From the NCBI GenBank assembly GCA_964016885.1, contig OZ024742.1:154566001-154630000 (forward strand): DNA of 64,000 bases, written 5' to 3'. The notes under the pieces were generated by a model, which was given only the letters and a program-made list of their open reading frames with translations, was not told the DNA's origin and ran no database searches. Origin of the DNA: Eledone cirrhosa. Lineage: Eukaryota. Positions 2,445-39,993 of the stretch are shown here, piece after piece (the stretch's first letter is position 1; every line of letters starts with the position of its first letter). Position numbers and translations under genes: made by a program.

Positions 2445-3490
2445 TAAATTATACAGTTATCAAAGTTGTGTTCAAATCATTTAATAGCTGACAATCGTTT
2501 CTTCCAAACTCTCGTATGGAATCATCGGAGTGTTATCCCTATGTTCACATATAATTAACCTCCTATTCAACTTAACAATAATATAGATACATATAAATTG
2601 ATATTGTGAGCAACAATTTCGTATTTACAGGGTGGAATGGATGTGACATATATTTTACGAGAATTGTACAATAATTGTACAAATATAGTCTATGAATATG
2701 AATTCATTAAGACTAATTTACAATCCATTGCTCTAACTCACTTAAAACATTCAATATAAATATTAACTAAAATAAATTTTATTCAACATATTTCATGGAA
2801 AAGTCTGCAAAAATCCTCTTTCTCAATACTCATTAATTCGAACACTCTCAACATTCAACATCCACCATAGATTCTAATACATTAACATATTCGCTAAAAG
2901 TGCAGTATTTATTCATCTATATATGCATAATAGCTTTGGGTGTCTCCTTCTCATGTATATGACTTACGCAGTTGCACTATCCACACGCCCGCACATGAAT
3001 TGTTAATGCACTCTTCCTTTCTCAAAACTACATTCCCATTGCCTCTTTAACAATTGGACTATTCTCTTGTTTTATCTGTTGCATGTATTCGACTCCGTGC
3101 TTTTGATTTGAATTTGAATTTGAATTTGAACATGAATGTTTGTACTATTAGTGTACAATTCTCGTAAAATATATGTCACATTCATTCCACCCTGTAAATA
3201 CGAAACTGTTGCTCACAATATCAATATATATGTATCTATATTATTGTTCAGTTGAATAGGAGGTTAATTATATGTGAAAATATTCATAATACTCCGATGA
3301 CACCATACGAGATTGTCAGCTATTAAATGATTTGAACACAACTTTGATAATTGTATAATGTATTTATTTTCCTGCTCTGTATAACAACTGATGTTCAAAC
3401 ATTGAGCTATTTATCTAACTGGTAATAAGGTAATACGAAATTACTGACATTCCTGTTTATAGTTGTTTATACTATATACATAACTAATAA
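2445..3490 (+). mobile_element. PLE 3' UTR derivative with inverted terminal arms
   Basis: About 2445-2680 is the reverse complement of about 3150-3360. Same family as 3770-4125, 5795-5983, 24490-24575 and 39900-39990. Confidence 0.7.
2486..2533 (-). ncRNA. Type I hammerhead motif, CCGANGA core variant
   Basis: Minus strand reads CACT-[CCGATGA]-TTCCATAC..GTTTGGAA-[GAAA]-CGATTG-[TC]-AGCT. Stem I is weak. Confidence 0.5.
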
Positions 3491-3514
3491 TAGTATTATT
3501 ATTATATATATATA

Positions 3515-3705
3515 ACGGTTGATTGGCAGTATCGGTAGAGGGTCGAACGCCATACTTTGCAGAAGAGTTACGTCCCTTTACGGACTGAGTTCAAATCCCG
3601 CCGAGGTTAACTTTGCCTTTCATCCTTACGGGGTCGATAAAATAAAATACCAGTAATACACTGGAATAATTGCTGGCCTTGTGCAAACAGGTAGAAACAA
3701 TTATT
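3515..3705 (+). mobile_element. tRNA-derived SINE with a Nin/Deu-like central domain
   Basis: A-box-like TGGCAGTATCGG, B box GAGTTCAAATCC, then GCCGAGGTTAACTTTGCCTTTCATCCTTACGGGGTCGATAAAATAAA.TACCAGT and an (ATT)n tail. Several copies occur in the window. Confidence 0.85.
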
Positions 3706-3759
3706 ATTATTATTATATATATATATATATATATATATATATATATATATATATATTAA

Positions 3760-36860: not shown

Positions 36861-38687
36861 TCTGGGAATATTTATGTGTTATTTAACTTGTTGTCTTGAA
36901 TTATTTAGTATATACGTATGAATTGATACACATGCACATATTCTCAAACACAGTCAAGTATAGATATACACAAACATACACACACATGCACACACACACA
37001 CACACACATACACACACACACGCACGCACACATATATTTGTGTGTGTGTGTGTGTGTGTGTTTCGTGTACATTTGTGATTGTGATGTATATATGCTACTT
37101 GTTTTATAATGTTATAGAAGTTTCACATATGGACATCTGAACAATTCTTCGTTAGACATTGCGACTTTGCGATGGTATACACACACATACGCACACTCCC
37201 ACATGCACAAACACACACATCCACACACACATATATATGTGTATGTGTGTGTATGTGTGTGTGTGTGTATGTGTGTGTCTGTGTCTGTGTATGTGTATGT
37301 ATATCCAAAACATACACATACATATATATTTTAATGAGGCTGTTTTATGTGTGGTCAACATAAAAAACAATCAAACATTAACTGCAAAAAGCACTCAATA
37401 GCTTTACGTAGAGTATAAAATGTATCCTCCAGACAATCTGACGCAGCCAATGAACAGTGAAACTCCAAAGTGACTGTCAAACTTTTCCATTTAAAATATA
37501 TATAAAAAACGACGTTGTGTGGATGTGAGCGCGCGTATGTGTTATATATATGTGTGCGTCTATGTCTGTATGTGTATGTGTTAGCGTCAATGTGTGTGTG
37601 TGAGCCTGTGTGTGTGAGGGTGTATGTTTGTTGGTGTGTGTGTGTGTTTGTTTGAATGTGTGTGTACGTGTGTGTGTGTGTGCACGCGCGCATGTGTGCG
37701 TGTATGCGTGAATGTGTGTGTGAGCGTGTGTGTCTATTTGTGTGTATGTGTGTGTGTGTGTGTGTGTATGTGTGTGTGTGTGTGTGTGAGTGTGTGTTTG
37801 TATGGGTATGTGTGTGTGTGTGCATGAATGGGTGTGCGTGTGTGCGCGCCTGTATGTTTGTGTGTATATGTGTATATATATTTGTGTGTAACTAACCGGC
37901 AGAGAAATTCGATTGAGAACACATAAAACGAAACGGCAATAACATTTTCAAGAATATACAGACATTCTTATTACAGCTATTATTGTTGAGTCCATTGGTG
38001 TTGCTTTCTCATATGATGTTTTTGTTGATATTACTGTTTTCTATGGTCAATCTTCACTCTTCTTCTTCTTCTGTCTTCTTCTTCTTCTTCTTCTTCTTCT
38101 TCTTCTTCTTCTTCTTCTTCTTATTATTATTATTATTATTATTATTATTATTATTATTATTATTATTATTATTATTATTATTATTATTCACATGTATATA
38201 TATATATATATATATATATATATATATATATATATATATGTTTATGTATATATATATATATATATATATATATATATATATATATATATGTGTGTGTGTA
38301 TGTATATATATATATATATATATATATATATATATATATATATATATATATATATATATATATACACATATATAATAAAATAAATCATTATTATTAGTAG
38401 TATTACTATTATTAGTATTGAGCTCAGCTGTTAGTGACTACGGCTGAAATTAGGAGTGCATTTCTTCTTATAGAAGTAGCATCCAATTAATTTACTTCAA
38501 AGAAGATAAGCAATTATGTTAAGAAAACAAATAGCAAACAGTCTATAGATTGCGAATGTAGATGTGGACAACGATTTTCGCCAGACCTACGTATGCAGAG
38601 GCCCTGAGAAAAAGGAATAAGTCAAACACTGACGATATTTTACTCTTAACATTCCCCATTCCCACCACTCTCTTACCTTATATATAT

Positions 38688-38990
38688 ATCATCATCATCA
38701 TCATCATCATCATCATCGTTTAACGTCCATGTTCCACGCTTGCATGGGTTTGGACGGGAGTTTTCCCACTTGAGGCAAGAGTGGTTGTCTTGCTCGCATA
38801 GGACTGTCTAGCGGGTTTTCTACAGCTGGATGCCCTTCCTAACACCAACCACATTTACAGTGTGGGACTGGGAGGTTTTTACCGTCTTGCCTACACGGCC
38901 ACATTACAGCGTGGACTGTGTGTTTTTTTGTCGTGACTCCTACACGATCTCATTTGTTTCGGCCTGGATGTTGTGACACCAACATAACTT
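38688..38990 (-). mobile_element. SINE-like repeat with a (GAT)n tail and a Meta/MESC-like core
   Basis: (CAT)n-CGTTTAACGTCCATGTTCCA.GCT and CAGCTGGATGCCCTTCCTAACACCAACCAC. Related copies at 59067-59250 and 59925-59962. Confidence 0.65.
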
Positions 38991-39069
38991 TATATTGAAA
39001 GGGGCGGTGTATATGGGGTGGGGGTTGTGGGACGAGGGTGTATTTTGTTAGAGATGGGTTAATCCACCA

Positions 39070-39993
39070 TAATAATATGATCACCTTCAGCATAACTTAA
39101 TTAAACTACTCTATAGTTAATACACTTTATGCTTTAAACATTTTTTTTTGAGGATGCGCATCACCATAGAAATTAGGGTCTATGTTGTGACACATCTTAA
39201 TAGCTAGGTATAGAAACCCCGGAGTTACCTCCCCGCATGCATTAACTCCCCTTAGCCACACACACATTTCCGGGTAGTATTCAATGGCGATTCTCGAAAC
39301 GTAACAGCCTCCTGTATTGAACTAAAGAACACCAGACTACGATCTCTAAATGGATTGTCAAACTCTCAATATCGAATTGTCGTGGATTATGTGAGGGGCA
39401 TATAATCGAAAAATACACTCCCCTGACCATGAAAATGTCGAAGTACATGAAATACTTGACATCCCTTCGCTGTGCATCTCCAATACTTTTAACACTTTTA
39501 ATGCTTGCACTATTTTTAATGCTTATAACATTTCTCCACACACAGACTATATCAATCATATAAAGAATTTGCCACCAGATCTACCAACCTAACACTCTTG
39601 TTTACCTACCTAAGTGCCTCTACCACACATATCTCTGTGCCACACTATATAAACAAGACGCACATGCGTGCCACACATATAACATTTGCACTATATAACC
39701 GCTTATCTTCATGTTGTATTTTAACCTGTATTTTTGATTTTTGATTGTACCTCTTAATATAAATGTAATCTCGAAGTGTGTACTGCCACTCTAAATTCTG
39801 TAATGAATGTTGACCCACAATGTTTGAATATGTATCAATGTTTGAATATGTATCGGTATGTCTCTCGGCTGAAAACGAGGTCATATAACTCTCCATGCAT
39901 TAATAAATTGCTCCGAAGAATCCAAACCTCGGTTTGGAGGAAACAGCTGTAAGCACAATAATGTTTTGAACAGTTCTTTGATTCTTATATTTC
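39070..39993 (+). mobile_element. PLE 3' UTR relic related to 5330-5983
   Basis: 39222-39300 resembles 5358-5440. It ends in an HHR motif and TTTGATTCTT, then (TA)n, as at 5962-5983. Confidence 0.6.
39909..39955 (+). ncRNA. Type I hammerhead motif, CCGAAGA core variant
   Basis: TGCT-[CCGAAGA]-A-TCCAAAC/GTTTGGA-G-[GAAA]-CAGCTG palindrome-[TA]-AGCA. Confidence 0.7.

Follow-up and report, generated by a model that had tools for sequence, protein, structure and literature searches.

The window analysed here, a 64,000-nt stretch of the Eledone cirrhosa genome (contig OZ024742.1, positions 154,566,001 to 154,630,000 of the forward strand; coordinates below are window positions), contains hammerhead motifs in which C replaces the core U at position 4 (C4, read as CCGA, for the canonical U4, read as CTGA). 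These motifs sit in the pseudo-long terminal repeats (pLTRs) of a Hydra-like Penelope-like element (PLE), and the comparison of its subfamilies and relatives indicates that C4 arose once and was retained. We propose, with a probability of about 55%, that the C4 RNA acts as an attenuated, dimer- or protein-assisted hammerhead ribozyme of a recently spreading PLE.

A sequence-only reading of the window had listed five CCGA sites in three insertions. CCGA is present at each site in the orientation claimed, and the grouping is upheld: the sites at 2522 and 3294, and those at 3974 and 5947, lie in the inverted arms of one insertion each (arms 87% and 95% identical, respectively), and the third insertion holds the site at 39913. 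The complete CCGANGA core attributed to all five is found at four, namely CCGATGA at 2528-2522 and 3294-3300 and CCGAAGA at 5947-5953 and 39913-39919, while the minus-strand site at 3980-3974 reads CCGAAAA, with an extra G8A change. The features of the three insertions are as follows.

39098..39998, plus strand: subfamily A insertion, 5'-truncated (3' untranslated region and pLTR).
39909..39955, plus strand: complete type I hammerhead fold with a C4 core, youngest subfamily A; stem I 39909-39912/39952-39955, core CCGAAGA 39913-39919, A10.1/G11.1 unpaired, 7-bp stem II, GAA 39940-39942, self-complementary 8-mer 39943-39950, predicted cut after A39951.
2440..3474: subfamily D insertion, an inverted arm 2440-2686 (minus strand) fused to a plus-strand arm starting at 2681.
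2486..2532, minus strand: C4-core hammerhead fold, subfamily D, with stem I and one stem II pair decayed.
3290..3321, plus strand: C4 core in the opposite arm of the subfamily D insertion, with a 15-nt deletion by which the stem II 3' arm and GAAAC are lost.
About 3754-5975: subfamily E insertion.
3938..3984, minus strand: C4-core hammerhead fold, subfamily E, with the additional G8A (CCGAAAA).
5943..5961, plus strand: C4 core and stem II 5' arm in the plus arm of the subfamily E insertion.
4540..4941, plus strand: C-terminal GIY-YIG endonuclease remnant in the subfamily E insertion, sharing 75% identity with the intact open reading frame (ORF) of locus L091.

The only complete motif among the five sites is thus that at 39909-39955. 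It shows the type I architecture, three stems around the core with the open end in stem I, it is surrounded by an extended stem I, and its insertion ends at (TA)n about 47 nt past the predicted cut. At the 5947 site an internal deletion of about 48 nt past the stem II 5' arm has removed the remainder of the motif.

Full-length copies of the host element (L091) are built on a tandem unit of 4.17 kb, carry the motif in each of the two repeats and contain a single 819-aa ORF with reverse transcriptase (RT) and GIY-YIG endonuclease parts. Pfam and NCBIfam gave no named match for this ORF, and its domains were assigned by motif: RWR, DKT, CNCRANRTC (the CxCX5C linker), CNLC (CxxC) and CQH (CxH), no CCHH, one Cys within the GIY-YIG core, and a C-terminal endonuclease. 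The traits given for the Hydra clade by Craig et al. (PMC8557442) are an RWK-like motif, DKT, the CxCX5C linker and a GIY-YIG domain without CCHH, with CxxC and CxH around E and N. The arrangement also agrees with that clade (pLTRs, tandem and inverted copies, insertion ends at (TA)n), and two descriptive traits depart from it, the C4 in place of a canonical core and the unit of 4.17 kb against generally <3 kb, owing to a long 3' region. The element is therefore called Hydra-like by its ORF motifs, the trees having covered families of its own genome and unnamed homologues rather than published Hydra references; its nearest database homologues are 42-52% identical in protein, and one named homologue together with the sequence composition points to an octopod host. 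An identity with Naiad, for which C4 would be the missing hammerhead, was ruled out by the C-terminal position of the endonuclease.

The C4 family is young and recently spreading, since all 144 of the 144 scored RT matches are 98-100% identical, many of them within an 832-codon open frame. The window copy 39098-39998 shares 97-99% identity with each of 40 other pLTR matches. The youngest copies were checked for CTGA, which the sequence-only reading had set beforehand as the observation that would tell against it, and carry CCGA instead.

To describe how fixed C4 is, one scaffold pattern was matched over the whole 3.0-Gb genome with each of three cores, giving 7,478 CCGA, 253 CTGA and 167 CCAA (reversed control 0 for each), so that C at position 4 is counted in 7,478 of the 7,898 matches over the three scaffold patterns. 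Two further lists were not selected for C at this position. For subfamily D, with a pattern open to C or T only, 91 CCGA and 9 CTGA are found among the first 100 of 964 matches; for subfamilies F, G and H, counted by eye, 84 CCGA, 8 CTGA, 8 other and 0 CCAA are found among the first 100 of 1,068. The majority sequence of subfamily E has T at position 4 in the comparison of nine subfamilies, for the sole reason that most E loci were chosen for T. In the basal subfamily H, CTGA is present in 4 of 12 listed rows; the arms of a single insertion are discordant (L241, L243) and a CCAA arm is present (L238), which points to a C4 source for this subfamily. C4 thus appears as the majority state in subfamilies A to G and as the inferred source state of basal H. 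In the raw DNA reads of run X19, T at position 4 is found in 61 of 1,324 reads, from 2 start places; these reads show that C4 is not an artefact of the assembly. In a comparison aimed at other species, contigs of runs X2, X5, X7, X9 and X13 over position 4 list no variant, a weak indication as contigs drop variants; X10 yielded nothing, and coverage of the site in X8 was minimal.

The sequence-only reading had argued that C4 creates a CpG and so runs against the usual direction of decay, and this argument is borne out. CCAA is the decay product of this core CpG on the other strand, so that both CTGA and CCAA are expected in dead copies, and both are what the dead copies show. The U4 copies within the C4 family accordingly look like the result of CpG decay. 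On the flank trees of D and H, which are short and weakly supported and for which the H loci were partly chosen for T4, they occur dispersed between C4 copies, and at six loci the copies are discordant at position 4. A surviving U4 sub-lineage inside the C4 clade was considered and rejected because of this scatter and of the frequent discordance of paired arms. In an older sample, C-to-T changes at the core CpG number 8 against 0-1 for G-to-A.

The direction of the change is given by the relatives of the C4 clade. A sister family, with the 35-nt geometry and stem I of the C4 clade, has 1,263 matches; all 100 of those listed carry CTGA, and the family retains G10.1, paired to C or U.

L227-L231: U4 sister lineage, with an intact 844-codon frame in L228.

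The sister ORF is 57% identical to that of the C4 clade, and the FastTree supports are 1.0 for the sister relation and 0.985 for the C4 clade including H, in a tree whose rows are single, partly decayed copies projected onto one query. CTGA is found too in a more distant 821-aa family, in the element at 55.7-57.9 kb and in 26 of the 26 Hydra rows of supplement S2 of Craig et al. (PMC8557442). Since the sister and the outlying families are U4, C4 is derived, having arisen once and then been kept. The claim that C4 is ancestral to this PLE lineage therefore holds within the clade, by the majority state in A to G and the inferred source of H, yet C4 is derived relative to the U4 sister.

In the majority sequences of the nine subfamilies (150 distinct copies, most of them chosen by patterns fixing part of the motif), all catalytic positions except 4 and N7 are invariant, C3, G5, A6, G8, A9, G12, A13, A14, A15.1 and U16.1 included. 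Position 17 is A or C across subfamilies, in keeping with H17 and a non-G cut site. Hammerhead position 10.1 is a purine paired with a pyrimidine at 11.1, usually as G-C; in the C4 subfamilies this canonical G10.1-C11.1 is lost, the two positions being A/G, C/A, C/U, U-A or U/U. Over the same clade protein identity goes down to about 70%, and between A and D or F the four-fold sites show 48-63% difference. When four-fold sites were compared over five subfamily groups, 11 of 76 were identical; C was present throughout at 2 of the 43 C-bearing sites, and at none of the 5 before a G.

According to the sequence-only reading, stems II and III differ between copies and still pair. Over 18 copies, 96.7% of 270 cells in 15 pairs are paired (26-43% with slid-partner controls), and 5 of the 15 pairs have changed on both sides. 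The paired changes stand out most in stem II, where A-U is exchanged for G-C in F and G, and in the variants of the stem III palindrome; basal subfamily H has a G-C version of this palindrome and an A-U version of one stem I pair. By this test on related rows, stems II and III covary, where a lack of covariation would have told against the sequence-only reading. When RNAalifold was applied to 15 copies, it recovered stems I, Ib and II, with a covariation term of only -0.1 kcal/mol. The extended stem I folds under constraints in 12 of 12 representatives, weakly in one. Monomer folds have modest z-scores (-1.97, -1.85 and 0.11). Two copies cofold as a double hammerhead at -34.7 kcal/mol, against -8.9 for one monomer fold, and stem III, an 8-nt self-complementary word, is stable only between two copies in this cofold. 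Among copies of the young subfamily, 27 of 48 stop matching the tandem reference 47-48 nt past the predicted cut, which indicates that the copied template spanned the cut site.

A second, separate Hydra-like family, abundant in the same genome, has A at position 4 (A4, a U4A change). Its motif runs from a 5-bp stem I through CAGAAGA, a 3-bp stem II flanked by single unpaired U residues, and GAA to a 5-bp stem III; its pieces in the window are as follows.

7015..7065, minus strand: A4-family copy, CAGAAGA at 7060-7054, with the full 5-bp stem III.
About 54364-54607: A4-family fragment, inverted and coreless.
About 58016-58094: A4-family tail piece.

Genome-wide the A4 family has 24,111 exact matches. 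With stem I required, 98 CAGA, 2 CAAA and 0 CTGA are found among the first 100 of 23,644; in the list without this requirement CTGA is present in 5 of 100 listed matches, four of which overlap an opposite-strand match at an inversion junction. L182 holds a tandem unit of 3.26 kb with a frame of 645 codons, and the motif recurs in each of its two repeats, at positions 527 and 3786. The A4 family protein shares 46% identity with that of the C4 family and falls on a separate tree branch, and the idea of C4 and A4 as one event was ruled out by these separate branches. The A4 copies seen are nearly uniform, hence give no covariation signal, and in the longer segment a fold other than the A4 hammerhead (-5.5 kcal/mol) has the lowest energy.

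The proposed mechanism starts from a PLE terminal-repeat hammerhead that exchanged its core U4 for C a single time and retained it, and holds that two tandem copies would pair through the self-complementary 8-mer of stem III to form a double hammerhead, and that a protonated C4 may stand in for U in the U-turn; protonated C is able to replace U in another U-turn (PMC4105743, PMC6061696). Selection would hold cleavage low, an occasional cut serving to process tandem transcripts. Low cleavage would be favoured since the site must still be uncut, or religated, for reverse transcription to pass through it from a start about 47 nt downstream. The hammerhead likely still self-cuts, slowly, and probably only as a dimer or with the element protein bound. 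The dimer cofold, the template spanning the cut site and the precedents from PLEs, the viroid discussed below and the U-turn lead us to favour the attenuated, assisted ribozyme over a non-cutting fold or a neutral change. In a wider form, which we put forward tentatively, the U-turn may have been rebuilt twice in the Hydra-like elements of this animal (C4 and A4, >30,000 matches together) into working partner- or protein-dependent cores, a tuned switch between a template kept whole and one processed, so that a class of PLE ribozymes would have been missed by CUGANGA searches.

Several points weigh against the assisted ribozyme. A comprehensive scan of mutants of another hammerhead found low activity for those in the CUGA turn, the C-G swap excepted (PMC9901934). 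The A4 family is even more abundant than the C4 family, which suggests that position 4 may simply be loose in these elements. CTGA exceeds CCAA by 253 to 167 (1.5-fold, p = 3e-5), which would fit U4 revertants at least as fit as C4, although any one of sequence context, strand bias and limited copying of revertants might explain the excess. The retention argument concerns one site, with a chance of about 1 in 20 under neutrality (2/43), and the four-fold test uses decayed copies, which inflates loss; the rows of the covariation test being related, its shuffle counts are optimistic and not probabilities. Finally, four loci chosen as concordant pairs (L191, L192, L193 and L194) carry G5A in both repeat copies; L191 among them is a nearly full-length tandem, its frame 650 codons long. 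At least once, therefore, a presumably dead core was copied or homogenised, and these loci suggest that both repeats were copied from one template segment or homogenised.

These G5A repeats would also fit a fold that no longer cuts and is kept as a structure binding protein and positioning reverse transcription, C4 and A4 having been favoured for silencing cleavage of the template. Catalytic mutants were without effect on in vitro insertion in a Penelope element (PMC11167929), the cut site is spanned by every complete copy, the extended stem I and the 3' tail are conserved, and two departures, U4C and the loss of G10.1-C11.1, occur together. We nevertheless hold a non-cutting fold to be unlikely: the remaining catalytic positions, a cut-site residue other than G and the palindrome for dimer pairing were kept while silent sites largely turned over, and among the many alternative silencing changes possible none was fixed.

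Less probable still is a position 4 that is functionally loose, where C4 would cut about as well as U4, would have been fixed by drift in one source element and would have survived by chance. U, C and A are each found in abundant families of one genome, CYGANGA descriptors already admit C (PMC13481778), and the U4 copies are 1.5-fold over those with G5A. CpG decay to U is however seen in 3% of all matches and in 8-9 of 100 listed older copies, yet no U4 sub-lineage stands on the flank trees, and four-fold C before G survived at 0 of 5 sites through an equal history. The view that the CCGA sites reflect decay of canonical hammerheads, chance or an error of assembly, for which the damage at four of the five window sites, the modest monomer z-scores and the lack of an Rfam hammerhead match at the C4 sites among 150 of 174 rows listed could be cited, is refuted by the 7,478 matches against 0 reversed, by C4 in both repeats of elements with intact ORFs, by the RT identities and by the X19 reads.

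Other hammerheads and elements are present in the window. Among the Rfam rows just cited, hammerhead matches are to a canonical family only, at 61587-61631 (minus strand) and 63937-63981 (plus strand), both below the gathering score; these are identical inverted copies of a canonical U4 hammerhead of another family. Further canonical U4 hammerheads are that at 28907 (minus strand), of another family; those of the inverted pair at 24772-25190 (cf. L161), from a young Hydra-like family (821 codons), in which stem II is very long; and that at about 57863-57915, which ends a decayed Hydra-like element (55709-57925). At 47715-51867 lies a Penelope-type element whose frame has 1,049 codons and whose 955-nt arms are 100% complementary, and a U4 hammerhead-like motif is found at about 53567 (minus strand). 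Pieces of other non-LTR retrotransposons, of AP-endonuclease/RT and restriction-like-endonuclease types judged by eye from ORF translations, are found at 11345-11788, 12407-15647, 19001-22377 and 25320-26714.

These data bear on why PLEs carry hammerheads and on whether cutting is needed. One genome holds three abundant groups with long or intact ORFs, namely the U4 lineage, the C4 clade that is sister to it and the A4 family, which is independent of both. They offer a natural comparison by which the need for the U-turn base in a native scaffold, and any tuning down of cleavage, could be judged. With C or A at position 4 such families are invisible to CUGANGA searches, and counts of PLE ribozymes based on this motif miss whole families. 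Neither a lineage-wide C at position 4 nor a natural U4A was found in the literature searched or in the supplements of Craig et al. and Cervera (Cervera file 1 aside), the catalogue of Lunse et al. 2017, the most extensive for PLE hammerhead variants, lying outside the comparison, and three motif strings of this analysis are absent from the text of the Craig et al. supplement. U4C as a tolerated variant is already known; for its fixation throughout a lineage, and for a natural A4, we found no report.

Ambros and Flores reportedly described a U4C hammerhead variant of peach latent mosaic viroid in 1998. The base change is identical to ours, and that variant, as related in PMC3088659, is slower in vitro and sufficient in vivo. 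There it is a sequence variant of one viroid, whereas here it is fixed across a retrotransposon lineage that numbers >8,000 matches and has U4 in its sister group. C is also admitted by CYGANGA, a descriptor in use for hammerhead searches (PMC13481778).

Among PLE hammerheads, those described by Cervera and de la Pena in 2014 (PMC4209133) resemble the C4 motif in their pLTR location, 4-bp stem I, 7-bp stem II, extra nucleotide after A9 and palindromic stem III implying dimers, and the pairing as a double hammerhead was already proposed for them. Their consensus is CUGANGAH with a conserved G10.1-C11.1, and a core variant described there is U3-A8, whereas the present motifs have C (or A) at position 4 and combinations other than G-C at 10.1/11.1. 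The Hydra-clade hammerheads of Craig et al. 2021 (PMC8557442) share the element type and the unpaired nucleotide on both sides of stem II, which is common in that clade; unlike the present families, their supplement rows are all ctga. The anole Poseidon element PAc (Frangieh et al. 2024, PMC11167929) likewise has a PLE hammerhead upstream of the start of reverse transcription. It belongs to another PLE clade, and a change at position 4 is not mentioned in the part of that report drawn on here. In PAc, the element of the catalytic mutants cited above, the ribozyme cut only with protein and the uncut RNA was the main insertion substrate, which offers a model for conditional cleavage.

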